A DNA stretch of 37,730 nt from Candidatus Bipolaricaulota bacterium (GTDB lineage: Bacteria; Bipolaricaulota; Bipolaricaulia; UBA7950; UBA9294): assembly GCA_015485945.1 (NCBI GenBank), contig WFSM01000027.1, forward strand, positions 1-37,730, given 5' to 3'. The notes beneath the pieces are model-generated. The model worked only from the letters and a program-made list of their open reading frames with translations. It made no database searches and was not told where the DNA came from. Made by a program: the position numbers and the translations under genes. Of the stretch, positions 2,264 through 34,330 are shown one piece after another. How positions within the stretch are numbered: position 1 is the first letter of the stretch; every line of letters begins with the position of its first letter.

Positions 2264-3193
2264 TCACTGCGCCTGCACTGCCGCATACAGCAGCTCCAAA
2301 AACCGCTCCCGCGATGCCTCGAGCACGACGTCGACATTTGGGGTGTTGTTAGTCACTCCGAAGTGGTCGACCACGGTCGCTCCCCGTGTGAGCTCGCTTT
2401 TTGTCTCGATCTCCACGTGAAGGCGACGGGTGACGGTTGCCACCCGGGGATCGATCGCCACCGCCATCGCGATCGGATCGGGGAGATCAAATCCCGCAAG
2501 CATCAAATGTTCGCGGCCAAAGTCGCGCAGCCGGCGTTGGATCGACACACAAAACTCACCGAGCGGGGAGACGCGCTGCAATCGATCGGCATCAGCGTCG
2601 GTGAACACCGCGTACCGTTGCGAGATATCCCATCCGACCATTGTGATCGGGATGCCTGACTCGAATACGATTTTAGCCGCCTCGGGGTCGACCCAGATGT
2701 TGTACTCCGCCGCCGGAACCACGTTTCCGTGTCCAAGGCCGATTCCCCCCATCACCACGCACCGATTGACCAGTCGGGCGATCTCCGGAGCGCGTGTGAT
2801 TGCGACCGCCACGTTGGTGAGCGGGCCGATGGTGACAAGGGTGATCTCGCCGGCGAGCCTGGTGATCGTATCGATGATTACATCGACCGCGTGTCCGGGC
2901 GCGGGCGTACGTCCGGATAGGGGCAGCCCGATGTCGCCCATCCCATCCGCGCCATGTACGAACTGCGCCGTTTCCAGCGGGCGCAGGAGCGGCTTGGCAA
3001 TCCCAGTGTACACCGGCACACCGCCGCCGCACTGTTCCACGGTGTACAAGGCGTTTTGCACGCCCTGGTTGACCGGGACGTTACCCGCCACTACGGTGAT
3101 CGCCTCCACCGCGATGTCCGGCGCGGTGAGTGCCATCACCAGAGCGACGGCGTCATCGGACGCGGTGTCAGTATCGATGATGAAGTGCCGCAT
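2264..3193 (-). CDS. Inosine/uridine-preferring nucleoside hydrolase family protein
   Basis: IIDTDTASDDAVALVMAL matches the DxDxxxDD fingerprint of IU-nucleoside hydrolases. I moved the start from 3253 to ATG 3193 (MRHFIIDTD) because GGGAGG lies 5 nt upstream and family members begin at this motif. Confidence 0.9.
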   Translation of the reverse strand: MRHFIIDTDTASDDAVALVMALTAPDIAVEAITVVAGNVPVNQGVQNALYTVEQCGGGVPVYTGIAKPLLRPLETAQFVHGADGMGDIGLPLSGRTPAPGHAVDVIIDTITRLAGEITLVTIGPLTNVAVAITRAPEIARLVNRCVVMGGIGLGHGNVVPAAEYNIWVDPEAAKIVFESGIPITMVGWDISQRYAVFTDADADRLQRVSPLGEFCVSIQRRLRDFGREHLMLAGFDLPDPIAMAVAIDPRVATVTRRLHVEIETKSELTRGATVVDHFGVTNNTPNVDVVLEASRERFLELLYAAVQAQ

Positions 3194-3296
3194 CAATCCT
3201 CCCTTTAGTGCCGCAGATGCATACAGCGTAGCGGATCGCGTCCCCGCGGGCAACCCACCTCGCCGTTGTTGTGGTCATCTGGTATCATCCTGCACC

Positions 3297-3974
3297 ATGA
3301 GAGGGGGAACCGAGTTGAAGGTTGTAATTGTATTGCTGGTGGTAGTTGTAGTTGTCGCCGGCGGTGTCGCTGCCGCCGGTTCCGCCGCTGAGGTAGTGTG
3401 GGACGCAAGCCGACCGCTGACATGGTCCGATTTTCGCGGGCTCCCGCCGCAAACACCAACTGCAGAGGCGGCGATGATCGATATGCGGATAAGTTGGCGA
3501 GTTGCGTACACTATTGTTTACGACCCGCTGCGGCGAATGTGGTCCGGAACGATTGATCAGGCCGGAGTTACGGTGGCGAACACCATGGATCCACGTGCAT
3601 CGTGGGTGCGCCCCGGGGCTGCAACCCCCGCGTTGCTCGATCACGAGCAGCACCACTTTGACCTGAACGAAGTGTACGCGCGCATGCTTGTGTCCGCCAT
3701 TACCGGGGTATCGGCATCTGGGGCGACGAAGAATGCCGTCGATGCCCACTTGCACCAGCTGATTGCCGCTGCTGGCTCCCGGGTCTTGGACGCCCTTAAA
3801 GTAATGCAGCGTGGGTATGACGATCAGACTGGGCATGGCACACATCTTGTACAGCAACGCGCGTGGGATGAGCAGATCGCGGCATGGCTTTGCACACCGG
3901 ATGCCGCTCCCGCCACCGCCGCGGATGCGCGCGCGGTTTTATCTGGTAAAATGGCGATAGGGGATCGAGGATGA
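3297..3974 (+). CDS. Membrane-anchored DUF922-like putative zinc metallopeptidase (HExxH)
   Basis: This is the 3' third of track ORF 2430..3974; the 5' part is an antisense shadow of the nucleoside hydrolase. From ATG 3297 (or TTG 3315 after GAGGGGG) there is a hydrophobic anchor VVIVLLVVVVVVAGGVAAAG. It is followed by LTWSDFRG...LLDHEQHHFDLNE, which matches my memory of DUF922/COG5661. The TGA overlaps the gltX ATG (3971-3974). Confidence 0.55.
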   Translation: MRGGTELKVVIVLLVVVVVVAGGVAAAGSAAEVVWDASRPLTWSDFRGLPPQTPTAEAAMIDMRISWRVAYTIVYDPLRRMWSGTIDQAGVTVANTMDPRASWVRPGAATPALLDHEQHHFDLNEVYARMLVSAITGVSASGATKNAVDAHLHQLIAAAGSRVLDALKVMQRGYDDQTGHGTHLVQQRAWDEQIAAWLCTPDAAPATAADARAVLSGKMAIGDRG

Positions 3975-5260
3975 TCAGAGTAAGATTCGCTCCCAGTCCG
4001 ACCGGTTATTTGCACGTTGGTGGGGCGCGTACCGCCCTGTTCAACTGGCTGTTTGCCCGTCATAACGAGGGCGTGTTCGTGTTGCGCATCGAGGACACCG
4101 ACCGCGAGCGCTCGACTGACGCGTCGATCGCCCAGATTATTGAGGCGATGCGCTGGCTCGGGCTCGACTGGGACGAGTACTACCGCCAGACTGACCGCAC
4201 CGCGATTCATCAGCAGGCCGCAGAGTCATTGCTGGAGGGAAGCCGCGCCTACGAAAAAGACGGGGCGTGGTGGTTCCGCGTCCCGACTGACGGGGAGACG
4301 GTGGTCCACGATGATCTCCTTGGGGACGTTGCATACCAGAACTCGCAGCTCAAAGACTTCGTCATCCGCCGATCCGACGGGAGTTTCGTGTACAACTTTG
4401 TGGTGGTGGTGGACGACGCCGACATGGGAATCACGCACGTAATCCGCGGTGATGATCATCTGAACAACACTCCCAAGCAGATCCTCCTTTACAATGCGCT
4501 CGGGCGGTCACTCCCGCATTTCGTCCACCTCCCGATGATCCTCGGGCCGGATCGCACTCGGCTCTCCAAACGGCACGGCGTGACGTCGGTCCTCGAGTAC
4601 CGCCAGCGCGGGTTTCTTCCCGACGCGCTCGTCAATTTTCTTGCCCGCCTCGGCTGGTCGCATGGGGACCAGGAATTTTTCACCCGCGACGAGCTGATCG
4701 AGCTATTTTCGCTTGGCCACATTGGGAAATCAGCGGCGGTGTTCGACGATGAGAAGCTGCATTGGCTGAACCAACAACACATGAAGGCCGTCGATCCAAC
4801 ACGGCTCGTGGATCTGGTGGCTCCGTTTGTGCGTGCTGAGGGCAAGATTACCGACGAGATGTGGGACAAGATCGATCGTGACCAGCTCGTTCGCGCGGTG
4901 GAGATACTCCGCCATCGCTGTAAAACTCTGGTCGATCTTGCTCGTGTCGTCGAGATTGTGTTTCCCGTTCCGCTTGATCGCGAGGAGGAGATTGAGCTGA
5001 CCGATCGCCAGCGGGAACTGATCGCAGCGTTAATCGACGTGTTTTCCGCATTGTCTGACTTCACCTCTGCGACAGTAGAGCGCGCGATGCGTGATACCCT
5101 CGCCGCCCACGGGGCAAAGCTGAAGGAAGTGGGACATGCGTGTCGGATGGCCGTAACCGGCAGGAAAGTCGGTCCGGGCCTGTTTGAGACGATCGCCCTT
5201 GTCGGGCAAGATATCACGATCGCGCGGTTGCGCGCGGTGCTTACGGGAGGAAACCGTTAA
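3971..5260 (+). CDS. gltX: Glutamyl-tRNA synthetase (compact 429-aa form)
   Basis: The N-terminus RFAPSPTGYLHVGGARTALFNWLFAR...RIEDTDRERS carries the HIGH-type motif. RLSKRHG is the KMSKS-type motif, and a C-terminal anticodon-binding helical region is present. Confidence 0.9.
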   Translation: MIRVRFAPSPTGYLHVGGARTALFNWLFARHNEGVFVLRIEDTDRERSTDASIAQIIEAMRWLGLDWDEYYRQTDRTAIHQQAAESLLEGSRAYEKDGAWWFRVPTDGETVVHDDLLGDVAYQNSQLKDFVIRRSDGSFVYNFVVVVDDADMGITHVIRGDDHLNNTPKQILLYNALGRSLPHFVHLPMILGPDRTRLSKRHGVTSVLEYRQRGFLPDALVNFLARLGWSHGDQEFFTRDELIELFSLGHIGKSAAVFDDEKLHWLNQQHMKAVDPTRLVDLVAPFVRAEGKITDEMWDKIDRDQLVRAVEILRHRCKTLVDLARVVEIVFPVPLDREEEIELTDRQRELIAALIDVFSALSDFTSATVERAMRDTLAAHGAKLKEVGHACRMAVTGRKVGPGLFETIALVGQDITIARLRAVLTGGNR

Positions 5261-6411
5261 TGAGAACCGTATTAATTACCACGTTAATCGTGGCCGTTAT
5301 CGGGGTTGTGGGGCTGTCTGCAACTGCCGATCTGCAGTATGTCAATTCCATCCTTGATCTCACGTCGTTGTTCATGCCGCAGGCGATTCAGTTGGCCTCC
5401 CCGCCGGCGAATGTCACGCTTCCGGCGGACGCATCCGGCACTCCGAGCTATGGGGTAATCCCGCTCAACAAGCAGGAGTTTCCGGCACTCATCGTGCGCG
5501 GTAAAAATACGGTGACACTGTACGTACGGCGCGAGGCCGACGCCGCGTTCACCCTGATCCCGTGGACCAACACGTTTCCCTCCGGACAACGCGTTGCCGA
5601 GTTTTCCGTGGATGTGTCGTACACGAGCGGGCGGGAACCGTACAACTTGTTCGCGATTTGGGATCCGGGATACCCGAGCGTGCTTGTGTACGCGCGTGAT
5701 TGCTACCGCGCCGGTGAGATCACTCTCAACGGAAAGACGTATAAAATCGCCGTTGTCGACGAAAATACGAACGGACGCTACGACGATCTTGCCAACGGCA
5801 CGTTGTTCATCGATGTCAACCAAGACGGGAAACTTCTCACAACGCGTGATTCAAATGAGCGGTTTACACTGTCGTCCCCGTTCAACCTTGGGGACAAGGC
5901 GGTGTACGCCGTGAAATCGGTGAGCGCGGATGGTGCTCACATTGTGATTGAAAAGAGCGCCAAATGGGTCCCGTTCAAGCCGTCGCTCGCGGTCGGCGCT
6001 GTAGCGCCCGATTTCTCGGGGACGACAAACACCGGCGCCAAGGTATCATTGTCCAAGCTCAAGGGGAAGATCGTGGTTCTTGATTTCTGGGCGAGCTGGT
6101 GTGCCCCGTGTGTCGCCGAGCTGCCGAATGTAAAAGCTCTTGCCGACCAGCACCGTGGTGATGGGCTTGTCGTTCTTGGGATTAACCTCGACCACAGCCA
6201 CGATGCGTTCACCACCGCGGTCACCCAGTACAAGCTCGATTACCCCCAGATCTACGACGGGGCCGAGGGGCAGATCGCAGATCTGTATAGGATAACGGCG
6301 ATTCCAATGACCTATCTCATCGGCAGAGATGGAAAAATCATCGCCAAGGGCCTGCGTGGTGACGCGCTGCGGCAGGCGGTGGAGAAGGCACTCGCGGCGA
6401 CCTCGGGCTAG
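5260..6411 (+). CDS. Signal-anchored TlpA/ResA-like thiol:disulfide oxidoreductase with a large N-terminal extracytoplasmic domain
   Basis: N-terminal anchor MRTVLITTLIVAVIGVVGLSA. The C-terminal thioredoxin fold contains VVLDFWASWCAPCVAELP (WCxxC) and IPMTYLIGRDGKI. The roughly 230-aa N-domain has Ca-loop-like DENTNGRYDD and DVNQDGKL. GGAGG lies 9 nt upstream, and the ATG shares a base with the gltX TAA (TAATG). Confidence 0.8.
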   Translation: MRTVLITTLIVAVIGVVGLSATADLQYVNSILDLTSLFMPQAIQLASPPANVTLPADASGTPSYGVIPLNKQEFPALIVRGKNTVTLYVRREADAAFTLIPWTNTFPSGQRVAEFSVDVSYTSGREPYNLFAIWDPGYPSVLVYARDCYRAGEITLNGKTYKIAVVDENTNGRYDDLANGTLFIDVNQDGKLLTTRDSNERFTLSSPFNLGDKAVYAVKSVSADGAHIVIEKSAKWVPFKPSLAVGAVAPDFSGTTNTGAKVSLSKLKGKIVVLDFWASWCAPCVAELPNVKALADQHRGDGLVVLGINLDHSHDAFTTAVTQYKLDYPQIYDGAEGQIADLYRITAIPMTYLIGRDGKIIAKGLRGDALRQAVEKALAATSG

Positions 6412-6422
6412 AAAGGAGCAGT

Positions 6423-7406
6423 GTGGCGAAACTGACGCTTGCGATCCTGATCATAGCAGTGATCAGTGTAACCGTGCTTAGTCAGACTCCTGTGCTTACA
6501 TTTTCCGTGGAGCCGACTACCGTATATCTCGCCCCTGGGCGGGCGGCGCAGTTCCAAGTCATTGCCACCAGTGGTGCGGCGTACACCGCCGACGACGTTG
6601 AGGTCTCGTTTACCATTCCACCCGGTCTGTCTGTGACTCCGCAGACGGGAACCATCGCCAAGATCGCTCCGTTCACGAAGGGGAAGCTGGCATTTTCCGT
6701 TACCGCCACTGCCGACCTCCCCCCCGGGAAATACACGATTACAGCCGCTGTTCTCTACACGTATTGCACAGCGACCAACTGCTTTCAGCTTGAAGATTCG
6801 TTGACCATCCCCGTACGGGTGACGGCGGAACTCACCGGCCCGGTTGCAACCACGAAGTCAGCCACGTTGCCGCCGTGGGCGCTCCCTACGCTCGGGCTCG
6901 TCCTCCTCGGGGTGGGAATCGGATTGTGGACGCGGGGAATAAAGGCACCGATCTACTTCGTGCTGCTGTTGTTCGTTATCGGTGGGTTTGTGTACGGAAT
7001 CAAGCTGAGGCAGCCGGAACAGGCGCAGGGGATAGCATCCGTTCTGTGCACATCGTGCGTAGGAATCGAGGCGGTGCAGCACGCCCCCCCCCACCTGTCG
7101 GACGCGGCGCGCGCTGCGCTGAAGCAAATCACTTCCAACATCGACCTCGTCGTGTTCTACGCACCGTGGTGTCACACATGCCCGTACGCCGAGGCAATGG
7201 TAAAGGACGTAGCGGCGATCAACCCACACGTCAAGTACACGTTCGTCGATGTAAGTGTTGACCGTGCCCGTGCCGCCCAGGCCGGAGTGATCCGCAACAA
7301 CCGCACGATCGTGCCCGCGATCATGCGCGCGGACACCGGCGCCGTGATCTTCGGGATTCGCGATCTCGAACCACGCCTGCTGCAACTGCTGGGGGTGGGG
7401 AAATGA
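6423..7406 (+). CDS. Fusion protein: signal peptide + DsbD-alpha-like Ig domain + 2 TM helices + CxxC + thioredoxin-like domain (WCxxC)
   Basis: GTG start after AAAGGAG. The N-terminal signal is followed by a beta-rich domain ending in VLYTYCTATNCFQLEDSLTIPVRV (compare E. coli DsbD-alpha [23 protein letters not shown], from memory). TM helices are LPTLGLVLLGVGIGLW and PIYFVLLLFVIGGFVYGI. After them come VLCTSCVG and DLVVFYAPWCHTCPYAEAMV. Confidence 0.6.
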   Translation: MAKLTLAILIIAVISVTVLSQTPVLTFSVEPTTVYLAPGRAAQFQVIATSGAAYTADDVEVSFTIPPGLSVTPQTGTIAKIAPFTKGKLAFSVTATADLPPGKYTITAAVLYTYCTATNCFQLEDSLTIPVRVTAELTGPVATTKSATLPPWALPTLGLVLLGVGIGLWTRGIKAPIYFVLLLFVIGGFVYGIKLRQPEQAQGIASVLCTSCVGIEAVQHAPPHLSDAARAALKQITSNIDLVVFYAPWCHTCPYAEAMVKDVAAINPHVKYTFVDVSVDRARAAQAGVIRNNRTIVPAIMRADTGAVIFGIRDLEPRLLQLLGVGK

Positions 7407-8230
7407 ACGTACGGCTGTCGTTGATGCGCCGCATCAGCCAGGGGTTTGGGCTCCTGTTGGGCCTGTTCGGATTCACCGGAATCGGAATGACGCACATCAT
7501 CTTCCCCGGACTGCACTGCTACGCGTGCCCACTTGCAGTTACCATCTGCCCGATTGGGTTGGCGCAGAATCTCGTGATCTACGGGACCGTCCCCTACTTT
7601 TGGGTGGCGACGATCGTTGCGTACGGCATCCTCGCCGGGCGCGGGTTCTGCGGCTGGTTCTGTCCGTTCGGAACGCTGAATGACCTGCTGTCGTTCCGCA
7701 AGGTGCGCATCAACGGGATCGCATCCTACTCCAAGTACGCCGTCCTCATTGGGACGATTATCGCGGCGTGGATGTTCGCCGACACGATGTTCTGCAAAGT
7801 ATGCCCGGTCGGGGGGCTGGAGGCATCGATCCCGTACCTGTTCCTCGGGGTGGCGTCGGTCAACCGCCCATTTTTGCTGCACTTGGGGGTGTTGGTGGCG
7901 GTGTTGGCGGGAATGGTGATTATCTCGCGGTTCTGGTGCCGCTACCTGTGCCCGATGGGCGCAATTTTGTCCCTGTTCAACCGGATTAGTTTTCTCCATT
8001 TGACGCTGAACCCCAACCGGTGCTCGTGGTGCGGCGACTGCGCAAAGGCGTGCCCGATGGGATTGCAACCACAAGAAGAATACGACTCGCACAACTGTAC
8101 GAAGTGCGGCGAGTGCACAACCGTCTGTACGATGGACGCCATTCAGCTTACTTTTTCGCCCCAGGTGGAACGCTCACGCCGTGTGATCCCACTATTGCTT
8201 AACCGCGAGCACGATCAGGGCGGTAGCTAG
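7403..8230 (+). CDS. NapH/NosR/NirI-type integral-membrane polyferredoxin (2x[4Fe-4S])
   Basis: Hydrophobic segments carry CYACP, CGWFCPFG, CKVCP and CRYLCPMG, the CX2-3CP motifs of the family. Two C-terminal ferredoxin motifs are CSWCGDCAKACP and CTKCGECTTVC. ATGA overlap with the preceding gene. Confidence 0.8.
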   Translation: MNVRLSLMRRISQGFGLLLGLFGFTGIGMTHIIFPGLHCYACPLAVTICPIGLAQNLVIYGTVPYFWVATIVAYGILAGRGFCGWFCPFGTLNDLLSFRKVRINGIASYSKYAVLIGTIIAAWMFADTMFCKVCPVGGLEASIPYLFLGVASVNRPFLLHLGVLVAVLAGMVIISRFWCRYLCPMGAILSLFNRISFLHLTLNPNRCSWCGDCAKACPMGLQPQEEYDSHNCTKCGECTTVCTMDAIQLTFSPQVERSRRVIPLLLNREHDQGGS

Positions 8231-9379
8231 GCTGATTAGAACCGCGATCCCGACCGCAACAGCAACTTCCTCCCATCCGCCCCCCGTGTAGGCGACGATG
8301 TGCGTCTGTGCGGATACGGCAGCGATCGCTGTCGCCACTCGGGTTCCCGGTCGCTGTGGATCCTCCAGCTGCACAAGGATGGTATACGTGCCGGATGGTC
8401 CGGCGTGCGTGTCGAGCCAGCCGATCACGTTCTTTCCTGGAACGATATCCAACGGTCCGGCAATGAGGGATGCCTTTCCCGGTGATAGTTGCATAGTCAG
8501 GGATGCGGCGTTCGGGCGCCGCGCGTAATACACGGTCCCGTCGGGACCCACCACTTGAACGAACACGAGATACTTCCCGCCGGTAGTAGCGGACAGGATG
8601 ACCGCTACCTCGTTGTGCACTGGCACCGGAGCGAAGGAGAGATGGACCGCTTCCGTGGGGTGGGTTGGGACCGGTCCCGTGGCGACGACGAATCGATCGA
8701 TCGTGTACGCCCCGAACACACCGCGGTTTAGGGTGGTCCGTATCCCGCGGGGATCATGTACGTCGCGGTTGTAGGGATCGGTGATCGTGTACGTCGTTCC
8801 CACCACGCCGGTGATCACTACCCAGTGACAGTTCTCGGTTTTCGCCGTCGTGCCGTGACAATGTGCGCCCCAGTGCACTCCAGCGATCACCGGATATCCA
8901 TGCGCCAGCGCGCTGTCGATCAGGGAACGTGAAGTGGAATCAAGGCCAGTTGTGGCGCTGTTGGTGTGCCCGGACAGGGTGATCCAAGGAATAGCGGTCC
9001 ACTCCAGGCAGCATTTCCCCACGCGATCGGTGGCGCAGCGGCCATATCCGCCGTGGGCACGCAGCCAATCGTTCAGAATGCCGGGATCCATTCCAGTGCG
9101 GACCTTGCCGGTGTCCGACTCCGCTGCGGGGATGGTCAGTTTTATCCCGTAGTAGTCAAGGACAGCGGCGAGCGAGGTGATCAAACATCCGGCTGTTTCG
9201 ATACGGTCCGGGCATCCGTTCGTTCCCATTGGATAGGCGCCCCAATACCCGTGGGAATCGCGGTACGCCTGGTTGAACCCGGGAATCGGCAGCGCCTGTG
9301 CGAATAGCGGAACGATAACCAATATAAGAATTAGTGCCGTGGACAACAGTGCGGTTGCTGTGACCTTGCGGTTCATCAT
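8192..9379 (-). CDS. Secreted, C-terminally membrane-anchored C39-like (clan CA) cysteine peptidase domain protein
   Basis: Signal peptide LLSTALILILVIVPLFAQA. The putative catalytic Cys is in ETAGCLITSLAAVLDYYGI and the His is in CHWVVITGV, as in Peptidase_C39_2-type domains. An Ig-like middle region and the C-terminal TM VAVAVGIAVLISLATALIVLAV follow. I moved the start from the track GTG 9388, which lies inside the SD, to ATG 9379, 8 nt after GGAGG. Confidence 0.6.
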   Translation of the reverse strand: MMNRKVTATALLSTALILILVIVPLFAQALPIPGFNQAYRDSHGYWGAYPMGTNGCPDRIETAGCLITSLAAVLDYYGIKLTIPAAESDTGKVRTGMDPGILNDWLRAHGGYGRCATDRVGKCCLEWTAIPWITLSGHTNSATTGLDSTSRSLIDSALAHGYPVIAGVHWGAHCHGTTAKTENCHWVVITGVVGTTYTITDPYNRDVHDPRGIRTTLNRGVFGAYTIDRFVVATGPVPTHPTEAVHLSFAPVPVHNEVAVILSATTGGKYLVFVQVVGPDGTVYYARRPNAASLTMQLSPGKASLIAGPLDIVPGKNVIGWLDTHAGPSGTYTILVQLEDPQRPGTRVATAIAAVSAQTHIVAYTGGGWEEVAVAVGIAVLISLATALIVLAVKQ

Positions 9380-9384
9380 GCTGA

Positions 9385-10716
9385 TCACCTCCCGGCGTGG
9401 TTCCTGATACCGGCGGCGGCGATCATACCGGTCACCGCAGAATACACGATCCCGCGGGAGTGTCCGGAGGAGTCGCCGGCGACGAAAAATCCGGGAACCT
9501 GCGTTTCCATCTCGTTTGTCACCGGGTAGCGTGTATCGTAGAACTTGATCTCCGGGGCGTACAGGAAGGTGTTGTCCGCGGTCAGTCCCGGGATGATGTT
9601 ATTGAGCTGCTCCAGACCCTCACGTAGATTCACCGCTACCCGATCGGGCAACGCCATCGAGATGTCACCCGGGGTGGCGTCGGTGAGGGTGGGGGAGATC
9701 GTAGCGCGGCGAAGGCGGTCCGCGGTCGACCGTCGCCCGCGGTTCAAGTCCTTCAGGCGCTGGATGATCGGGCGGCCACCTCCGATCGTCGTCGCCAATT
9801 TAGCGATCGCGCGGCCGTACTCAGTGGTGTCCTCCACCGGATCGGTAAGCTCAATGTGGGACAGGAGGGCGAAGTTGGTGTTCTCGGTCTTGACGTCGTT
9901 CTCCGCGTGCCCGTTGACAAGCGAAAATTCCTCATACTTTTCCCGCACCACGAATCCACGCGGATTCGTGCAGAACGTACGCACCATATCATCGTAGGTG
10001 GCGGTGCGTACGCGCAGCTTGGCGTCGTACATCACCCGTTCGATCGGGGTGTACAGCTCAGCGGGGAACTCAACGCGAACTCCAACGTCGATCGGCCCGT
10101 ATTCCGTCTCGATTCCCAGCTGCAGTGCTTCCTCCCGTAGCCAGTACGCGCCGGCACGGCCCGGGGCGGCGATTACGTACCGGGCGGAGATTGTCTCCGC
10201 GCCGTGGAGGATGAAGCGGTCATCAGTCCGCTCGATGCGGGTGATACGGTTCCCAAGCGACGCTTCGATCCCGTGAGAACGCAGATGCTCCCAGAATCGT
10301 TCCACCACCTTGCGCACCGGCGTGGTGCCCATGTGGCGTTGCCGCCCGCTGATAAATTCAATTCCGTACCGGCTTGCCGCTTTTTTTAACGCCATGAGGG
10401 CGTCGGCGTTTTCGCCCGAGTACTTTTTCGGCGCACCAAACCGGGTGAACGTGGCATCGATGCGGTCGATATAGTCCTGAATTTCCTCCGGAGTGCGGCC
10501 GATGCTTGCGGGATCACCGCCGATCTTGGGTGTGAGGTTGAGCTTTCCGTCGGAGAACGCGCCCGCGCCGCCAACCCCAAACGCGATGTGAGTGCGGCGG
10601 GCGACCTCCGGACCACGGTCGATAACCACTGTGGTCAGCCCGCTTTCGATGAGGACATCAGCGGCAAACAGCCCGGCGGGGCCGGCGCCGATGATCGCAA
10701 CGTCTGCTTGTTTCAT
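9385..10716 (-). CDS. COG2509-type FAD-dependent oxidoreductase of unknown substrate
   Basis: Rossmann motif DVAIIGAGPAGLFAA. GVGGAGAFSDGKLN is a hallmark of the uncharacterised FAD-dependent dehydrogenase family, and GFFVAGDSSG lies near the C-terminus. ATGA overlap with the upstream HAD gene. Confidence 0.85.
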   Translation of the reverse strand: MKQADVAIIGAGPAGLFAADVLIESGLTTVVIDRGPEVARRTHIAFGVGGAGAFSDGKLNLTPKIGGDPASIGRTPEEIQDYIDRIDATFTRFGAPKKYSGENADALMALKKAASRYGIEFISGRQRHMGTTPVRKVVERFWEHLRSHGIEASLGNRITRIERTDDRFILHGAETISARYVIAAPGRAGAYWLREEALQLGIETEYGPIDVGVRVEFPAELYTPIERVMYDAKLRVRTATYDDMVRTFCTNPRGFVVREKYEEFSLVNGHAENDVKTENTNFALLSHIELTDPVEDTTEYGRAIAKLATTIGGGRPIIQRLKDLNRGRRSTADRLRRATISPTLTDATPGDISMALPDRVAVNLREGLEQLNNIIPGLTADNTFLYAPEIKFYDTRYPVTNEMETQVPGFFVAGDSSGHSRGIVYSAVTGMIAAAGIRNHAGR

Positions 10717-14228: not shown

Positions 14229-14753
14229 TCAGTCACCGGTGATTGTGTACACGACAGTGAGCCCGTAATCACCTGGTTTGTAAGCAGCGGGATTGAGTTT
14301 AACACGGTAATCGATTGTCAGTCGGTATGCACCCCGTTGGCCGTGCGCCAGTGGCTGATCAAATTGGGATATCGGGAAGAACGTTCCACCGTTAACACGG
14401 ACGAGAAAATCGGAAAGAGGCTTTACGTAACTGCCGTCGGTGCTTGTGCCCATGTTTGGTTCCAACGCGTGCACGTTCACCGTCCATGGAATGTTACTTG
14501 CGGCGACCAGGGTGAGCGCTCCGTCCTGTTCGATGTAGCCAGCGGCGAAATCAGCGGCCGTGGGCTGTTTGAGATTAAATCGGGAGACGACGCTCGTCCC
14601 GGTGGTAGCGGATCCGACAACTGTAAGCGATTGGAACGGAAGTACCCGCCACGTTACGGTAACTGCCGCCGTCGTGGAGTTAGCAGCAAGACCGGACACA
14701 GCTACAGTGCATGCTGCAGCGATAAGGAGGAATAATCCAACCCATTGTTTCAT
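14229..14753 (-). CDS. Secreted beta-rich protein of unknown function (possibly pilin/SCPU-like surface subunit)
   Basis: Signal peptide MKQWVGLFLLIAAACTVAVSGLAA. The mature part is rich in alternating T/V strands and ends in PGDYGLTVVYTITGD, which only loosely resembles SCPU/DUF4402-type subunits. It sits downstream of the c-di-GMP riboswitch. Confidence 0.7.
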   Translation of the reverse strand: MKQWVGLFLLIAAACTVAVSGLAANSTTAAVTVTWRVLPFQSLTVVGSATTGTSVVSRFNLKQPTAADFAAGYIEQDGALTLVAASNIPWTVNVHALEPNMGTSTDGSYVKPLSDFLVRVNGGTFFPISQFDQPLAHGQRGAYRLTIDYRVKLNPAAYKPGDYGLTVVYTITGD

Positions 14754-14759
14754 CTTCGC

Positions 14760-14847
14760 ACTTCGGTAACCCGGCTGCCGTCTCAGGCCCGTGGCTTTGC
14801 GCCCCTCACTTCCATGTTCGTGAGGTTTGCCGTTATCGGTCCGAAGT
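14760..14847 (-). promoter_or_regulatory. c-di-GMP-I (GEMM-I) riboswitch aptamer
   Basis: The minus-strand RNA is ACUUCGGACCGAUAACGGCAAACCUCACGAACAUGGAAGUGAGGGGCGCAAAGCCACGGGCCUGAGACGGCAGCCGGGUUACCGAAGU. It shares the conserved blocks GGCAAACC-[hairpin]-G(A/G)CGCAAAGCC-[hairpin]-GC(G/C)GGGUUACCGA(U/A)G with the V. cholerae Vc2 aptamer (from memory). The closing stem is ACUUCGG/CCGAAGU and the hairpin stem is CCUCAC/GUGAGG. The aptamer ends 6 nt before the AUG. Confidence 0.85.
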
Positions 14848-14910: not shown

Positions 14911-15705
14911 TTACCGCACAATTAGCGTGACAGTGAACGAGTTTTGCGCCGGAACATTCTCCCACGAACGGAGATACGCGAACTTAAGGACCTCCGTGCC
15001 GGCTCTCACCGCCTTGTACCGGAACAGGAACCTCCCCCCGGAGCCGATCGCGGTGCCCGCGGGTTGGTAATCCGGACCGGGAACAGCTTGAAGGATCGAA
15101 TCCGCCAGTGACCCCACTAGTTTCCAACGGTAGCCGGTAGTGGGATTGCCGGGAAGGGTTATTATCACCATCTTGCCGGGCTGGATGGTGATCGCTGTTC
15201 CAGCGTCCGCTTTCGTGACGGCGCGATACACGGCAAGCCCAATCCCGCACACCGATGCGTGTGCGCTCATCCGCCCGTATGTCCCCGATGACGTCGGCGA
15301 TACGATTTTTATCGCAGCGCGAAACTCGCCGATCGAAGTTGCCACAATGACGGTGTAGTCACCGGACGGGACAGGTGTGCCCGCATCGTTCCGCAGGTTC
15401 CACAACCCAATCCACCGCGCGGAGTCCGTCGCAGCGATGTCTGCCGCGTATACCGAGGCTCCGTTGCTGGTGCGCACCGTCAGTCCCTGGATGAGAATCG
15501 GTCCGCACATGCACGGACACGGTGTCGTCCGCGTCAGTTCGAGCGCGATCGCGCTGCCCTGTGGAAACACGAACGTACCTACCGTGGCGCGCACCGGTCC
15601 ATTCGTCGTCGCGGAACTGGAAGCGGTTGCCTGTGCCAACCCTGTTGTGGGAATGAGGATTCCGATCAGTCCAATGAGAAGGATACGCGTGAGTACTGCC
15701 TGCAT
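14911..15705 (-). CDS. Secreted FlgD-Ig-like domain fused to a chagasin-family (MEROPS I42) cysteine-peptidase inhibitor domain
   Basis: Signal peptide ILLIGLIGILIPTTGLAQA. WNLRNDAGTPVPSGDYTVIV resembles the FlgD-Ig motif. The C-terminal domain has LPGNPTTGYRW, GSGG and YLRSWE, corresponding to the three chagasin loops NPTTG / GxGG / RPW. The start was moved from GTG 15714 (inside GAGGTGA) to ATG 15705. Confidence 0.8.
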   Translation of the reverse strand: MQAVLTRILLIGLIGILIPTTGLAQATASSSATTNGPVRATVGTFVFPQGSAIALELTRTTPCPCMCGPILIQGLTVRTSNGASVYAADIAATDSARWIGLWNLRNDAGTPVPSGDYTVIVATSIGEFRAAIKIVSPTSSGTYGRMSAHASVCGIGLAVYRAVTKADAGTAITIQPGKMVIITLPGNPTTGYRWKLVGSLADSILQAVPGPDYQPAGTAIGSGGRFLFRYKAVRAGTEVLKFAYLRSWENVPAQNSFTVTLIVR

Positions 15706-15795
15706 TGCTATCACCTCGATTCAGGTACACGCGGTTGTCAGCGCCGTTTCATCGTCCGTTTTATTTTTCGCGGTGGACCAGTACACTACCCACAA

Positions 15796-17275: not shown

Positions 17276-18883
17276 GTGGCTTATTTAACCATTCCGGCGT
17301 ACTTTGCCCGTTCGGTTAGCAAGTTTGCCGACCGGGCTGCTATCGGTAATACACGCCCTCACCCGGGCGAGCCTGACGCGATCACATTTCGTGACCTCGA
17401 TCAACTGTCCGCCCGCGTTGCCTGTGGTCTCGTCGACCTTGGCGTGCAACAAGGAGATCGAGTGGCGATTATGTCCCGTCCCCGTATTCGATTTGCCGCC
17501 GCTCTCCTCGGGATTCTGCGCATCGGGGCATGGATGGTCCCGCTCGACCCCACTCTGGCCAAGCCGGAAGCAGAGACTCTTATCGCGGAGTCGGGAGCGA
17601 AGGTCGTGTTCGCCCCGGGGAAGTTGTTCGACCGTCTGCCGACGGAGGGATTGATCCGCATCGATTTTGACGACGAGACTGGTATGCGGTTTTCTTCCTT
17701 TCTTCGCGCTGGGGATCTACCAACGCCGGAGTTGACCGATGCCGATATCGCGGTACTGGCGTATACATCTGGGACGACCGGCAACTCCAAGGGAGTGTTG
17801 TTGAGCCACGGCAACCTCGTCGCCGACATCGAGGCGTGCATCACCGTGATGCCGATCGACGAAAATGATGTGTTTCTCACTATCGCTCCCTGGCACCACA
17901 TTCTCGGACTGACTACCTCGCTCCTCCTCCCGCTGTATACCGGTGCCCTTGCATTGTACACTGACGACTATCGCGCGATTGCTAAGCTGCTGGAAAAGTA
18001 CGGCGTGACCGTGTTTATCGGCGTCCCCAAGCTGTACCACGCGATGTACGAGAAGCTGATGAATCAGGTACGGGGAAATCTGATGGGACGAATCATGCTC
18101 CGCCTCGCTCCACGGTTGGTGGGCAACAAGGTGAAGCAGGCGCTTACCGGGGGGAAACTGCGGTTCTTCGTGTCCGGGTCGGCTCCGCTTGATCCCAACG
18201 TGAGCCACGGATTCCGGCGGCTGGGCATCGGCCTTCTCGAAGGGTATGGACTTACCGAAACTTCCCCGGTGGTGTCATTCTGCGACCCGTTTTCGCCCAA
18301 GGGAGGCTCGGTTGGTCATCCTCTACCCGGGATCGAGGGCAAGCTGATCACCACCCGTGCCGACGGTGTGGGAGAGCTGCTCGTGCGCGGTCCGACGGTG
18401 ATGCAGGGCTACTACAACAACGAAGCAGCAACACGTGAGGTGCTCGATGCCGATGGCTGGTTTCACACCGGCGACTTGGCGCTGATCGATCCCGACGGCG
18501 AGATATTTCTTAAGGGGCGAGCGAAGAACGTGATCGTGCTGGAAAGTGGGAAAAACGTGTATCCTGAGGAGATCGAGTGGGAGTTCTCCCGCATTCCGTA
18601 CATCGAGGAGGTGCTCGTACGCGGAGAGGAGGAAGAGGGGCACGAGGTGGTGAAGGCGATCGTGTACCCGAACATGGAACGGTTGCGCGCCGTCGGTCAC
18701 GCGGACGACGCACATGATGCGATCTGGCAGGAGATCAAGCGGCGCCAGCAGCGTCTTGCTCCGCACAAGCGCATCCGGCGCAAGAGCGACGTCGTCCTCG
18801 TCGATGCCCCGTTCCCCAAGACGAGCACCATGGACATCAAACGACATCTGTACCGAGGCGGAAATGGCATACCCAACTCTTAA
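17276..18883 (+). CDS. Long-chain acyl-CoA synthetase (AMP-forming, FAA1/COG1022 type), copy 1
   Basis: GTG start after AAGGAG. AMP-binding motif LAYTSGTTGNSKGVLLSHGNL, followed by GYGLTETSP, WFHTGDL and GRAKNVIVLESGKNVYPEEIEWE. Confidence 0.85.
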   Translation: MAYLTIPAYFARSVSKFADRAAIGNTRPHPGEPDAITFRDLDQLSARVACGLVDLGVQQGDRVAIMSRPRIRFAAALLGILRIGAWMVPLDPTLAKPEAETLIAESGAKVVFAPGKLFDRLPTEGLIRIDFDDETGMRFSSFLRAGDLPTPELTDADIAVLAYTSGTTGNSKGVLLSHGNLVADIEACITVMPIDENDVFLTIAPWHHILGLTTSLLLPLYTGALALYTDDYRAIAKLLEKYGVTVFIGVPKLYHAMYEKLMNQVRGNLMGRIMLRLAPRLVGNKVKQALTGGKLRFFVSGSAPLDPNVSHGFRRLGIGLLEGYGLTETSPVVSFCDPFSPKGGSVGHPLPGIEGKLITTRADGVGELLVRGPTVMQGYYNNEAATREVLDADGWFHTGDLALIDPDGEIFLKGRAKNVIVLESGKNVYPEEIEWEFSRIPYIEEVLVRGEEEEGHEVVKAIVYPNMERLRAVGHADDAHDAIWQEIKRRQQRLAPHKRIRRKSDVVLVDAPFPKTSTMDIKRHLYRGGNGIPNS

Positions 18884-20501
18884 CGAACTGTTCGATACCA
18901 CGGTGCGGCAGCACTCCGATCGGATCGCATTGCGCATGCCGATCCCCAAGGAACGGAAGCGCGGCGGTGGAATCCGGTTGGTGCTGAACGAAATCTCCTA
19001 CGACCGGTTGGGGGAGATGGTAGGGCGGTTCGCGGCCGCGCTCCGCGAGCTGGGAGTGAACAAGGGTGATAAGGTAGCACTGATCTCCAAGCCACGGGCG
19101 GCGTGGGTGACTGCATTCTTCGCGATCATCCGGCGAGGAGCAGCGGTTGTTCCACTCGATCCCGATCTGCAAAAGGCGGAGATTGAGCGGATCCTCGTCG
19201 AAGCCGAGGTAAAAGGAGCGGTCATTTCCGGCCTGAAGGAAGAAGCAGTCTCTGCGATTAAAAAAGACGATCTGCCCGACATGTTTATTGTGTCGATGGA
19301 TCGCCCGGCAGGAGAGGGTATCCTGTTTCTCGACGCCCTTCTCCTCGGGAGAAAGCCGATCGCGGCGGAAAATGTGTCGCCGGATGACATGACGATCCTG
19401 ATGTACACATCGGGAACGACCGGAAACGCTAAGGGGGCAATGCTCCTCCATCGCAATATTTCCTCCAACGCCCTCACCGCACTCAAGATCGTTGACCTAT
19501 CCGCAGCCGATAACTTTCTCACGATCGTGCCGTGGTATCACATCTACGGGCTCACGATCACCCTGATCACCCCACTGATTGCCGGTGCGACGACGACCTA
19601 CGCCCCGGTCGATCGTAATCTCAGTCAGGTGATGAAACGGGCACATCCGACGATCATCCTTGGAGTGCCGAAGCTGTATCACGTCCTGTACGCGCGTATC
19701 ATGGAATCGATTGAGAAGAGCTGGATCAAGCGGATGATCTATCACGCGTCGCCGACGCTGATGGGAAAACTGGTGAAACGGACGCTGTTTGGGAAGGGAT
19801 TTAGGTTCTTTACCTCCGGAGGAGCGCCCCTCAGTCCGGAAGTGGCGCAGGGATTTAGGCGAATGGGCATTGGGATCATGGAGGGGTACGGCCTTACCGA
19901 GACAGCACCGGTGCTCACCATGAGTCACAAATTCGCGACCGCACCGGGGATGGTTCCGTTCCCTGAAGTGGAGGTACGAATAGACAATCCGGATGATGCC
20001 GGGGTTGGCGAAATCGTCGCTCACGGACCAAACATCATGGCAGGCTACTATAAAAATCCAGCGGCAACTGCCGAGGTGATCGATCCCGACGGTTGGTTTC
20101 ACACCGGTGATCTCGGCCGCATCGAGGACGATCGCATCATCATCTCCGGCCGGGCGAAGAACGTAATCGTGCTCGAGACGGGGAAGAACGTGTACCCGGA
20201 AGAGATCGAGTGGGAACTTGCTACCATTCCCGAGATTGAGGAAATCATGGTGTACGAGGACGTGCGTCAGGGAGCGCCGGCGGTGGCAGCCAAGGTTTAT
20301 CCGAATTGGACCGCGCTTAAACAGCAGGAAATCATGGATCCGGACAAGGCCATCGATCTAATCTGGGATCGGATTCGGGAGAAGAACGAGAATCTCGCCG
20401 TGTTTAAACGGATTAAGTACAAGGATCTCGTCACGTTGGTTGACGAACCGTTTGAAAAGAGCGTCAAGCTTGATATCAAGCGCTACAAATACAAGTCTTA
20501 G
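18864..20501 (+). CDS. Long-chain acyl-CoA synthetase (AMP-forming, FAA1/COG1022 type), copy 2
   Basis: The start is placed at ATG 18864 (MAYPTLNELFDTTVRQHSDRIALR) after GAGG, not at the track start 18714. Motifs are LMYTSGTTGNAKGAMLLHRNI, GYGLTETAP, WFHTGDL and GRAKNVIVLETGKNVYPEEIEWE. It overlaps copy 1 by 20 nt. Confidence 0.85.
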   Translation: MAYPTLNELFDTTVRQHSDRIALRMPIPKERKRGGGIRLVLNEISYDRLGEMVGRFAAALRELGVNKGDKVALISKPRAAWVTAFFAIIRRGAAVVPLDPDLQKAEIERILVEAEVKGAVISGLKEEAVSAIKKDDLPDMFIVSMDRPAGEGILFLDALLLGRKPIAAENVSPDDMTILMYTSGTTGNAKGAMLLHRNISSNALTALKIVDLSAADNFLTIVPWYHIYGLTITLITPLIAGATTTYAPVDRNLSQVMKRAHPTIILGVPKLYHVLYARIMESIEKSWIKRMIYHASPTLMGKLVKRTLFGKGFRFFTSGGAPLSPEVAQGFRRMGIGIMEGYGLTETAPVLTMSHKFATAPGMVPFPEVEVRIDNPDDAGVGEIVAHGPNIMAGYYKNPAATAEVIDPDGWFHTGDLGRIEDDRIIISGRAKNVIVLETGKNVYPEEIEWELATIPEIEEIMVYEDVRQGAPAVAAKVYPNWTALKQQEIMDPDKAIDLIWDRIREKNENLAVFKRIKYKDLVTLVDEPFEKSVKLDIKRYKYKS

Positions 20502-31881: not shown

Positions 31882-32370
31882 CTACCGAAACTGATCCTCG
31901 ATCAAGTCAGCAATCTCCTCAATTTGCCGCGGTGGAATCGTGGCCACCCCGTCGGGGAGGGCGACGTGCGCATCGGTGATCACCTCGATGACGTCGATCT
32001 CGCCGGCCAGGGGCTCGATTCGCGCTGCGCGGGGGGGATGATATACCTCAATCTTGGGGAACGGTCCGTGTTTGAATCCCTCAACAAGAACAAGGTCACA
32101 GTCCGGAAACGCTGCCGCGATCAGTCGTGTCAAGTTTTCCTCGGGATCGAAGAACAGTGCTGCCCCGTCCTCCCCGAGGAGGAGTGTGCGCGTCGCCCCG
32201 GCAAGGCGGTGGCGGGCGGAATCGGCGGTTGGATCGCCGTGCACCGCGACATGAGGTGCGTGCTTCACCGTACCCACGCGGTAGCCACGGTCCTGCAGCA
32301 CCGGAATCAGCGCTTCGATCAGCCGTGTCTTGCCCGCGTTCTTGTGGCCGATGATTGAAATCGCGTTCAC
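31882..32370 (-). CDS. mobB: Molybdopterin-guanine dinucleotide biosynthesis adapter protein MobB
   Basis: ISIIGHKNAGKTRLIEALIPVLQDRGYRVGTVKH. The GTG start overlaps the AOR TGA (GTGA). Confidence 0.85.
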   Translation of the reverse strand: MNAISIIGHKNAGKTRLIEALIPVLQDRGYRVGTVKHAPHVAVHGDPTADSARHRLAGATRTLLLGEDGAALFFDPEENLTRLIAAAFPDCDLVLVEGFKHGPFPKIEVYHPPRAARIEPLAGEIDVIEVITDAHVALPDGVATIPPRQIEEIADLIEDQFR

Positions 32371-34208: not shown

Positions 34209-34330
34209 CAGTTCACCTCTTTCGCTATTATCCATCCATTTTATGGCGTACGCCTCCGTTCTACCAGGTTGCAGCCCGCCGTCGATTCCCTGAAAATTAT
34301 AATAATCGAAAGTCCAAGTGAGGTGTACCT

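Follow-up and report, generated by a model that had tools for sequence, protein, structure and literature searches.

The window analysed here is a stretch of 37,730 nucleotides (nt) of chromosomal DNA, of about 60% G+C, from a Candidatus Bipolaricaulota bacterium (GenBank assembly GCA_015485945.1, contig WFSM01000027.1). At 5260-8230 it carries three consecutive genes, here termed P3, P4 and P5, which respectively encode a membrane-anchored redoxin, a membrane protein with a thioredoxin domain and a NapH-related polyferredoxin (Table 1). We consider it probable, with some reservation, that these genes specify an apparatus in the membrane which passes reducing equivalents from the cytoplasm on to proteins of the thioredoxin fold at the outer side, and that it operates without a channel of the DsbD/CcdA type. 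The conserved core of this system would comprise P5 and a transmembrane (TM)/juxtamembrane CxxC-[ILVM]-G element, found either as residues 180-216 of P4 or as a free mini-protein. To our knowledge, extracytoplasmic thiol reductants (TlpA, ResA, CcmG, DsbC/G and the partners of Msr) are understood to be fed only via the DsbD/CcdA/ScsB relay from cytoplasmic thioredoxin. More tentatively, we propose that the pair of a P5-type protein and a mini-subunit with a CD1871A-type CxxC (in one lineage possibly CxxU) may constitute a third class of transmembrane disulfide reductase, one based on Fe-S clusters, which would replace or parallel DsbD/CcdA in strict anaerobes of more than 10 bacterial and archaeal phyla, including gut Clostridia.

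P5 adheres to the layout of the NapH/MauN proteins, with four TM helices, two cytoplasmic CX3CP motifs and two C-terminal [4Fe-4S] motifs, and matches the Fer4_5 domain (PF12801) over two stretches, with 57.8 bits against a gathering threshold of 22. Its best NCBIfam matches are NapH and NapH/MauN (TIGR02163/NF007013), at scores far under the cutoffs of these models (79.4 against 213 and 81.9 against 234 bits). The alignment with Escherichia coli NapH revealed five extra cysteines in P5, namely C39, C42, C49, C131 and C134; the fifth of these outer cysteines (C49, part of a 'CP') had been missed in the motif list of an earlier note that was made from the letters of this DNA. All 17 cysteines of P5 are invariant between Bipolaricaulota and fusion proteins of Clostridia that are only 31-35% identical, and within the phylum the P5 homologs are 64-84% identical, a conservation well above that of P4. 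On these sequence comparisons, P5 belongs to a distinct NapH-like subfamily marked by five extra outer cysteines.

The assignment of these cysteines to the outer side follows from charge counts. Across 30 members of the P5 family, the mean number of lysines plus arginines (K+R) is 3.9 in the N-terminus, 0.03 in loop 1, 7.0 in loop 2 and 2.1 in loop 3, and because of this positive-inside pattern P5 is predicted to have its N-terminus in the cytoplasm, with loops 1 and 3 outside and hence the extra cysteines at the outer face or close to it. This topology agrees with that reported for E. coli NapH, in which both termini lie inside. A sequence search of the PDB with P5 matched only its ferredoxin part and returned no membrane structure of the NapH family for comparison. 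An AlphaFold2 (AF2) model of P5 computed from a 30-sequence alignment had a predicted local distance difference test score (pLDDT) of 58.4, too poor for fold searches or geometry, and was left unused. The CX3CP motifs of the NapH/NosR/RdhC family may form disulfides or bind clusters (PMC5928378).

The second part of the core emerged from a scan of one genome per species with a 7-sequence profile, which yielded at least 80 loci from many phyla. Outer motif 1, defined by the pattern CxxCP...CP, is present in 27 loci, five of which come from look-ups of clade relatives (the clade being Bipolaricaulota). These 27 span Bipolaricaulota, metagenome-assembled genomes (MAGs) labelled as Thermotogae, Bathyarchaeia, Methanofastidiosum, Dehalococcoidia, Hydrothermota, Caldisericota, Eisenbacteria, WOR-3, Thermodesulfobacteriota, Oscillospiraceae, Lachnospiraceae and Tissierellia. 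Directly upstream of the NapH-like gene in every one of the 27 loci sampled, abutting or overlapping its start codon, lies an element composed of a TM helix, a spacer of about 12-15 residues and the motif [ILV]-C-x-x-C-[ILVM]-G-[ILV]. A script recovered it in 24 of the 27; the other three (L002, L003 and L014) fell below the thresholds of the script and were seen separately. The element precedes none of the 59 NapH-like genes that lack outer motif 1. A stricter version of the motif occurred 16 times at up to 1.5 kb from genes with outer motif 1 and not once in 746 kb of other sequence, and two archaeal loci (L016 and L018) have neither the element nor the CxxC of outer motif 1. As judged from these genomes, the CxxC element is thus a fixed companion of the P5 subfamily. 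A loose pattern for outer motif 2 matched nearly everything and was disregarded.

The element occurs in four forms: 1) a free protein of 44-61 amino acids (aa) that ends two or three residues past the motif. 2) A version extended by a thioredoxin domain, seen in Bathyarchaeia (L011, 150 aa) and Methanofastidiosum (L014, 171 aa). 3) The C-terminus of a multi-TM protein of 272-276 aa encoded upstream of the fusions in Clostridia. 4) A segment embedded in P4, at residues 180-216. A hidden Markov model (HMM) built solely from members outside the clade detected this P4 segment at E 2.8e-5, with no false positive among 4425 open reading frames (ORFs). In NCBIfam the element is represented by a 38-aa model, NF040920 (CD1871A family CXXC motif-containing protein). 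The free mini-proteins encoded upstream of P5-like genes are members of this family, and together with the upstream proteins of loci L088 and L089 they pass its cutoff of 32 bits with scores of 32.4-61.6. P4 is not matched by NF040920 in the NCBIfam search at E<=0.1, its match being to the profile built outside the clade only. The CD1871A family is a name only: our literature search found no paper and no function for it, and the mentions of CD1871 that it did find concern only a conjugative-transposon region of Clostridioides difficile.

Three further observations concern this family. The namesake CD1871A of C. difficile 630 sits in the conjugative-transposon region, for which reason the module may be a mobile one. 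For Peptoclostridium acidaminophilum (L090), RefSeq annotates, in a span of about 3 kb, a gene of the TlpA family, a divergent gene for an MFS transporter and then two overlapping genes, one for a CD1871A-family protein and one for a '4Fe-4S binding protein'; this locus is situated on plasmid EAL2_808p (NZ_CP007453.1, 777393-786226), an 809-kb replicon of a cultured organism, and its CD1871A protein has 46 aa. Finally, the mini-ORF at 4846-4983 of a WOR-3 MAG (L023) has an in-frame TGA at 4969-4971, at the position of the second cysteine of the motif (LLCLS*IGLE, followed by TAA), with an 8-bp hairpin with a GGU loop 13 nt downstream, the energy of which is no better than that of shuffled sequences. 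This motif may be a CxxU selenoprotein variant, which, if true, would mark the motif as redox-active.

P4, which contains the element in this window, combines an N-terminal β-sandwich, two TM helices and a C-terminal thioredoxin domain. The closest named relatives of both P4 and P5 are MAG proteins of 'Candidatus Bipolaricaulota' and 'Candidatus Acetothermia'. In a 28-sequence alignment extending down to 35% identity, all six cysteines of P4 and its cis-Pro loop are invariant, as are the YxYC...CFQ context, the LCTSCVGIE stretch and the WCxxCP motif. The Pfam matches of its thioredoxin domain (residues 226-327) are weak (E 4e-4); the P4 profile matches structures of protein disulfide oxidoreductases (PDO), glutaredoxin (Grx)-like proteins and thioredoxins at 1e-11, with a Pyrococcus protein disulfide oxidoreductase and glutaredoxin-like proteins as the best PDB matches. 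The AF2 model of P4 (pLDDT 82.8) consists of an N-terminal helix, the β-sandwich, two TM helices, a juxtamembrane helix and a small thioredoxin fold. The loop at residues 170-175 is basic, and both the immunoglobulin (Ig)-like and the thioredoxin domains are acidic, from which we infer that the two domains lie outside and the loop inside. Like members of the DsbD superfamily, P4 has a thioredoxin-fold domain with a CxxC; its location, as predicted from the K+R counts, is extracytoplasmic, in agreement with the earlier note.

That note had described P4 as a fusion of a DsbD-alpha-like domain with two TM helices, a CxxC and a WCxxC. The last three parts were borne out; the kinship of the N-terminal domain with DsbD-alpha was not supported by Pfam, Foldseek or phmmer, and we regard this domain as a generic Ig-like sandwich. 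The Pfam search gave only weak matches to NPCBM_assoc, PKD and similar domains, the Foldseek search of the PDB retrieved generic Ig-like, macroglobulin (MG) and pilus-chaperone folds, with DsbD-alpha absent from the best 50 matches, and phmmer with E. coli DsbD-alpha found no match. The likeness is confined to a conserved cysteine pair on a β-hairpin, and since neither Foldseek nor phmmer produced a DsbD-alpha match, 'DsbD-alpha-like' is to be taken as an analogy and not as a family assignment.

P3 has the features of the TlpA/ResA/DsbE-type proteins: the AhpC-TSA/Redoxin fold, a WCxPC active site and an N-terminal membrane anchor. Its redoxin domain (nt 5992-6363, with the CAPC of the WCAPC active site at nt 6100-6111) matches Pfam AhpC-TSA with 86 bits (cutoff 26; 2.5e-24) and Redoxin with 68 bits (cutoff 26.6; 7.4e-19), and the protein stays under the cutoffs of the more specific NCBIfam models (94 against 170 bits for ResA and 56 against 230 for TlpA). 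WCxPC redoxins of the TlpA/ResA/DsbE type are reductants. The N-terminal domain of P3 (about 220 aa; residues 1-243, nt 5260-5990) has no Pfam or NCBIfam match. It includes a stretch rich in D, N and G, DENTNGRYDDLANGTLFIDVNQDGKL, and the equivalent stretch in the P3::P4 fusions described below is likewise D/G-rich.

Gene fusions outside the phylum link the same kinds of modules. An HMMER search with P5 against 1.84 billion representative sequences gave 7553 relatives, 114 of them below 1e-30, and the nearest non-clade relatives (35-48% identical) come from Thermotogota, Thermococci, Methanomicrobia and Methanofastidiosa and bear generic names only. A C-terminal Redoxin/AhpC-TSA domain is present in 22 of the 45 closest representatives that are 400 aa or longer, and 17 of the 45 score as Thioredoxin. 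In such fusions, the cytoplasmic Fe-S domain is followed by an extra TM helix and a TlpA-like domain with a WxxWCxxC motif. One of them (P0309), used as the query, found 3957 proteins at E<=0.001, a number in which either half of the query may have been matched; all 120 of the 120 listed matches are fusions, and the few named ones are proteins of Clostridia MAGs called '4Fe-4S binding protein' or 'redoxin family protein'. NapH-like::TlpA-like fusions thus make up a very large family in Clostridia. In P0281, P0330 and P0332 the NapH-like module is fused to a TM helix that is followed by PCLGCLAL and by one or two thioredoxin domains, so that their C-terminal half is P4-like. In P0382 and P0346 the NapH-like module, outer cysteine motifs included, is joined in either order to a GltD-like NAD(P)H/FAD/Fe-S oxidoreductase, an arrangement suggestive, for some lineages, of a cytoplasmic donor linked to NAD(P)H. 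No curated NCBIfam model reached its cutoff on the fusion representatives. The archaeal relatives P0243, P0249, P0250, P0253 and P0319 (Thermococci, Methanomicrobia and Methanofastidiosa) are extended at the C-terminus by long stretches that include no further TM helix and are presumably cytoplasmic; at least P0253 and P0319 have more CxxCxxC-type motifs, along with thioredoxin/glutaredoxin-like segments that lack a CxxC.

Thioredoxin-fold genes also adjoin the core pair as separate genes. Narrow local HMMs under-detected these folds, and Pfam and phmmer searches with DsbD-gamma were therefore added; with Pfam and phmmer, such genes are found next to the core in L011, L013, L014, L015, L017, L021, L031 and L090, and fused in L088 and L089. 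The flanks examined of L019, L020, L022-L025, L027, L030 and L035 contain no thioredoxin-fold gene. A thioredoxin-fold acceptor is accordingly frequent and not always adjacent, and the core pair is present in every locus with outer motif 1. Given the conserved 4-nt overlap of P4 and P5, the strict co-occurrence with the CxxC element and the many independent fusions, the comparisons support a functional tie of the P5 polyferredoxin to thioredoxin-type modules that goes beyond adjacency, a link for which the earlier note had argued from gene order in this one stretch.

In the window itself, the three genes close a string of five plus-strand ORFs spanning 3297-8230, in the order DUF922, gltX (glutamyl-tRNA synthetase, GluRS), P3, P4 and P5. 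Its junctions are exactly as the earlier note had given them: an ATGA overlap between DUF922 and gltX (3971-3974), a TAATG with a 1-nt overlap between gltX and P3 (5256-5260), an 11-nt gap (6412-6422) with an AAAGGAG before the GTG start of P4 at 6423, and another ATGA overlap between P4 and P5 (7403-7406). Its gene identities (DUF922, GluRS, a TlpA-like WCxxC redoxin and a NapH-type polyferredoxin) were likewise recovered by profile searches. The string ends at a convergent gene for a C39-like peptidase. A consensus scan of 3000-9500 for promoters and terminators found none above shuffled controls, and the operon call consequently rests on the gene overlaps.

Three distinct relatives in the clade, with P4 proteins 38-45% identical, show the order gltX, (P3), P4, P5, bacA/uppP and convergent C39-like peptidase, and all three have kept the 4-nt P4/P5 overlap. 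P3 is missing in L001. Elsewhere P3 is fused to P4, as a single ORF of about 695 aa in L009 (5905-7995), L010 (5914-7995) and L012 (1397-3493), with the order N-terminal domain, TlpA-like, Ig-like, two TM helices, CxxC and thioredoxin and with all four cysteine pairs kept; their carriers are some Bipolaricaulota and, in the case of L012, a MAG labelled 'Thermotogaceae'. The bacA/uppP gene directly follows the NapH-like gene in every clade relative (L001-L005, L008-L010 and L012) and also in the Methanofastidiosum locus L014; neither bacA nor a remnant of it was found in the window. Since the flanking genes of the clade genomes (HAD hydrolase, RsmD and SurE) are syntenic too, clade synteny by itself is weak evidence. 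Wherever a clade locus includes enough DNA on that side, gltX lies upstream, and it does so in no locus from other groups; a DUF922 homolog precedes gltX in only one relative (L001). The two genes are neighbours of the redox genes only within this phylum, and we treat gltX and DUF922 as co-transcribed neighbours without evidence of shared function, the DUF922 gene being the first of the overlapping string and lying outside the redox core.

A channel of the CcdA type is missing from the cluster, as had been noted earlier. PF02683 (DsbD/CcdA) matched neither P3-P5 nor the remaining window ORFs of 150 aa or more. The E. coli DsbD-beta sequence, searched with phmmer, had no match in the six-frame translation of the whole window or beside the 27 loci with outer motif 1; the only DsbD-beta match among the loci was in L044, a locus of another NapH-like subfamily. 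The proposed task is nonetheless that of DsbD/CcdA/ScsB, namely to move reducing power across the membrane to thioredoxin-fold proteins of the TlpA/ResA/CcmG type, and P4 mimics the module order of DsbD (an Ig-like domain with a cysteine pair, a membrane segment with a cysteine pair and a thioredoxin domain), to which the P3::P4 fusions add a CcmG-like module. The differences are that 1) P4 lacks PF02683, its membrane part being a 2-TM hairpin, and the channel role would pass to an unrelated NapH-like Fe-S protein; 2) the Ig-like domain of P4 has no detectable homology to DsbD-alpha; and 3) the electrons would probably come from ferredoxin or NAD(P)H via Fe-S clusters, whereas the donor of DsbD is cytoplasmic thioredoxin.

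The mechanism that we envisage would have four steps: 1) a low-potential cytoplasmic donor, such as ferredoxin or, in some lineages, the fused GltD-like NAD(P)H flavoenzyme, would reduce the two [4Fe-4S] clusters of P5. 2) Electrons would pass through the inner CX3CP pair to the five outer cysteines, possibly by Fe-S-assisted disulfide chemistry similar to that of ferredoxin:thioredoxin reductase (FTR) and heterodisulfide reductase (Hdr). 3) The outer cysteines would reduce the juxtamembrane CTSC of P4, which would in turn reduce the thioredoxin domain of P4 at its WCHTC. 4) This domain would reduce the cysteine pair of the Ig-like domain of P4 and/or the WCAPC of P3, and through these the envelope substrates. 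In FTR and Hdr, a [4Fe-4S] cluster beside a redox-active cysteine pair turns one-electron transfer into two-electron disulfide reduction. A conversion of this kind would be needed in the P5 system, and the likeness is one of chemistry only: the sequences are unrelated, FTR and Hdr are soluble or face the cytoplasm, and clusters at the cysteine motifs of P5 are putative. The earlier note had opposed an Fe-S route to a cysteine relay; with cysteine pairs on both faces of P5, a cysteine relay fed by Fe-S clusters is at least as likely. As to substrates, our default guess is the repair or maintenance of envelope cysteines, and cytochrome c maturation seems unlikely in this phylum.

The reductive direction is favoured because of the WCxPC type of the redoxins, the GltD-like fusions, the thermodynamically favoured outward flow from low-potential clusters and the probable scarcity of quinones in the carrier lineages. 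As far as we know, the carriers among Clostridia, Thermococci and relatives of methanogens mostly lack quinones. The paper on a closed Acetothermia genome portrays a fermenter that relies on ferredoxin, without any mention of quinones or cytochromes, and an aldehyde:ferredoxin oxidoreductase is encoded in the window.

Several points weigh against this reading. The co-occurrence counts are phylogenetically non-independent, the proteins with outer motifs being one subfamily, and the case for all members is built on computation. The topologies of P4 and P5 derive from hydropathy and the positive-inside rule only. In the AF2 model of P4, residues 202-215 have a pLDDT below 50; they include the CTSC stretch, and the juxtamembrane helix lies partly inside them, and this low confidence, together with that of the P5 model, leaves the contact between the cysteine motifs without structural support. 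The CcdA search covered the window and the flanks of the loci, and a CcdA may be encoded elsewhere in the genome. About half of the non-clade loci have no thioredoxin-fold gene within a few kb, for which reason the core pair may serve other acceptors too. Moreover, electron flow through NapH-like modules is proposed to go either way, in the service of both reductases and oxidases (PMC8238504).

This last point leads to the reverse scheme, an oxidising pathway comparable to DsbB or VKOR, in which the thioredoxin-fold proteins would oxidise or isomerise envelope cysteines and P5 would carry the electrons inward to an acceptor in the cytoplasm or the membrane. The proximity of the P4 thioredoxin domain to the Pyrococcus protein disulfide oxidoreductase and glutaredoxin-like proteins is in keeping with it, as are the proposed service of NapH-like modules to oxidases (PMC8238504) and the fact that neither DsbB nor VKOR was seen in the window. 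We regard it as unlikely, however: the modules most often fused to P5-like proteins are WCxPC redoxins, which are reductants, electron transfer from a disulfide-forming catalyst to a low-potential [4Fe-4S] cluster would be thermodynamically uphill, and the GltD-like NAD(P)H modules on the cytoplasmic side make better sense as donors.

P5 might instead handle metal, as a metal reductase or metal-binding protein resembling CcoG, with the CxxC proteins as Sco/TlpA-like metallochaperones. The cupric reductase CcoG/FixG/RdxA does share the Fer4_5 membrane module, two [4Fe-4S] motifs and an Ig-like extracytoplasmic domain within the system, there are weak CcoG and Fer4_18 matches among the P5 relatives, SCO1-SenC scores weakly on two neighbouring redoxins, and the cysteine-rich outer loops could bind metal. 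Yet P5 has no significant CcoG score: CcoG/FixG (TIGR02745) is absent from the best 25 of its 40 NCBIfam matches, and in its relatives the model reaches 19-27 bits against a cutoff of 317. In the system described here the Ig-like domain is on a separate protein and the partners are of the thioredoxin fold, the domains fused or adjacent to P5-like proteins obtain much higher scores as AhpC-TSA, Redoxin or Thioredoxin than as Sco, the window offers no context of heme-copper oxidases or copper transport, and the carriers are mostly strict anaerobes. A role in metal handling is therefore, in our view, quite unlikely.

A third alternative is that P5 is an ordinary quinol dehydrogenase of the NapH type, which oxidises menaquinol for an unrelated periplasmic enzyme, while a CcdA encoded elsewhere reduces the thioredoxin-type proteins and the adjacency reflects mere gene order. 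The identity of the best NCBIfam matches, the synteny of the whole region within the phylum, which makes the local synteny weak, and the restriction of the CcdA search to the window and flanks all fit this view. It is rendered very unlikely by the low scores of P5 against the NapH cutoffs (79 against 213 bits), by the absence of NapG, NapA, NapC or MauM among the window ORFs and clade loci, by the five outer cysteines that NapH lacks, by the strict co-occurrence with the CxxC element, by the many independent thioredoxin-fold fusions in distant phyla and by the carrier lineages that, as far as we know, mostly do without quinones. The idea that the P5-CxxC pair is a regulator, redox sensor or cofactor assembly factor without steady flux recalls the first description of the NosR/NirI relatives as regulators, the uncertain role of CX3CP (PMC5928378) and the loci, about half, without a thioredoxin-fold neighbour, but it is most improbable in view of the fusions to catalytic redox domains (TlpA-like, thioredoxin and GltD-like) and the absence of any DNA-binding or signalling domain in P3-P5.

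Table 1. Genes of the string and its convergent neighbour, with the domains and cysteine motifs of P4 and P5 (window positions)
Feature	Position (nt)	Strand	Basis
DUF922-like HExxH protein, N-terminal TM anchor	3297-3974	+	PF06037, 33.5 bits against cutoff 27; HEQHH present
gltX (GluRS, 429 aa)	3971-5260	+	TIGR00464, 461 bits
P3, signal-anchored TlpA/ResA-like redoxin	5260-6411	+	AhpC-TSA, Redoxin, WCAPC, one N-terminal TM helix
P4, Ig-like/2-TM/CTSC/thioredoxin protein, 327 aa	6423-7406	+	137 full-length homologs, AF2 model, profile matches
P4 Ig-like β-sandwich, which follows signal/TM1	6489-6839	+	AF2 model, residues 25-133
P4 cysteine pair C115-x4-C120 in β-sandwich	6765-6782	+	invariant
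P4 TM2-TM3 hairpin	6867-7004	+	helices 153-170 and 175-194 (AF2)
P4 CD1871A-like juxtamembrane segment	6960-7070	+	residues 180-216; CTSC (C209/C212) at 7047-7058
P4 PDO/Grx-like thioredoxin domain	7098-7403	+	WCHTC (C250/C253), CHTC at 7170-7181
P5, NapH-related 4-TM polyferredoxin, 275 aa	7403-8230	+	Fer4_5, 57.8 bits; NapH/MauN under cutoff
P5 outer cysteine motif 1, CYACP-x5-CP (C39, C42, C49)	7517-7552	+	loop after TM1
P5 inner CX3CP 1, CGWFCP (C83/C87)	7649-7666	+	aligns with E. coli NapH
P5 outer cysteine motif 2, CKVCP (C131, C134)	7793-7807	+	loop after TM3
P5 inner CX3CP 2, CRYLCP (C179/C183)	7937-7954	+	aligns with E. coli NapH
P5 two [4Fe-4S] motifs, CX2CX2CX3C (C207-C217, C232-C242), predicted cytoplasmic	8021-8128	+	align with NapH
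C39-like peptidase gene, convergent, 39-nt overlap with 3' end of P5	8192-9388	-	Peptidase_C39_2, 5.9e-8

The remaining observations concern the surroundings of these genes. The gltX product is 40% identical to E. coli GluRS (BLASTP), with a gap over the C98-H127 region of the latter; it is without about 38 residues of the E. coli enzyme (approximately 98-138), which correspond to the insertion with the zinc-binding Cys/His cluster, and the GluRS proteins of the clade relatives are similarly short (428-437 aa). On the minus strand, a match to the c-di-GMP-I-GGC riboswitch (RF03167) at 14761-14840, with 59 bits, exactly the gathering score, and E 1.3e-11, lies directly upstream of an ORF (14229-14753) that has no Pfam match. 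The next gene (14911-15714, minus strand) encodes a chagasin-type I42 peptidase-inhibitor domain. Two adjacent plus-strand ORFs for AMP-binding (acyl-CoA synthetase-like) proteins, at 17276-18883 and 18714-20501, overlap by 170 nt as listed; the second probably begins further downstream. Another AMP-binding gene, the third (34331-35950), adjoins the aldehyde:ferredoxin oxidoreductase gene (32367-34235, minus strand).

Among the relatives of P5, the NapH/MauN/NosR/NirI/RdhC (PceC) proteins share its 4-TM core with two cytoplasmic CX3CP motifs (Fer4_5), and NapH and NosR also its two C-terminal [4Fe-4S] motifs. The known partners of NapH-type proteins are NapG, FMN-binding domains flavinylated by ApbE, NosZ and reductive dehalogenases. 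The mau cluster holds both MauN, which is NapH-like, and MauD, which is DsbE-like, and we know of no demonstration of a direct link between the two. NapH-like modules have been presented as interchangeable transmembrane electron conduits for extracytoplasmic partners, including flavinylated ones (PMC8238504, Meheust et al. 2021), and in the flavinylated systems an FMN-binding domain is on or next to the NapH-like protein and accompanied by ApbE (PMC8238504). The system described here differs in that P5 is without FMN-binding domain, ApbE and NapG (FMN_bind and ApbE have no match in P3-P5 or the other window ORFs) and has instead the five extra outer cysteines, the CxxC mini-subunit and thioredoxin-fold acceptors. 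Neither the searchable literature nor the curated family libraries contained anything on a pairing of NapH-like proteins with thioredoxin-fold partners, in line with the suggestion of the earlier note that the arrangement is uncharacterised. While the kinds of components are already known, we did not find described the thioredoxin-fold pairing, the extra outer cysteines or the obligate CxxC mini-subunit.

If the proposed reductive role is true, it would explain how anaerobes, archaea among them, keep envelope cysteines reduced with reductant at the level of ferredoxin, and would provide a function for the thousands of proteins that at present bear no label other than '4Fe-4S binding protein', 'redoxin family protein' or 'CD1871A family'. 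The role would also bear on the role of CX3CP in the NapH/NosR/RdhC family, since here cysteine pairs on both faces of the membrane are combined with thiol-redox partners, and would highlight a conserved subunit of about 45 aa that is easily overlooked by gene callers. The idea is directly testable in a cultured carrier, P. acidaminophilum, and, if the mechanism holds, these proteins would represent a new class of transmembrane disulfide reductase.

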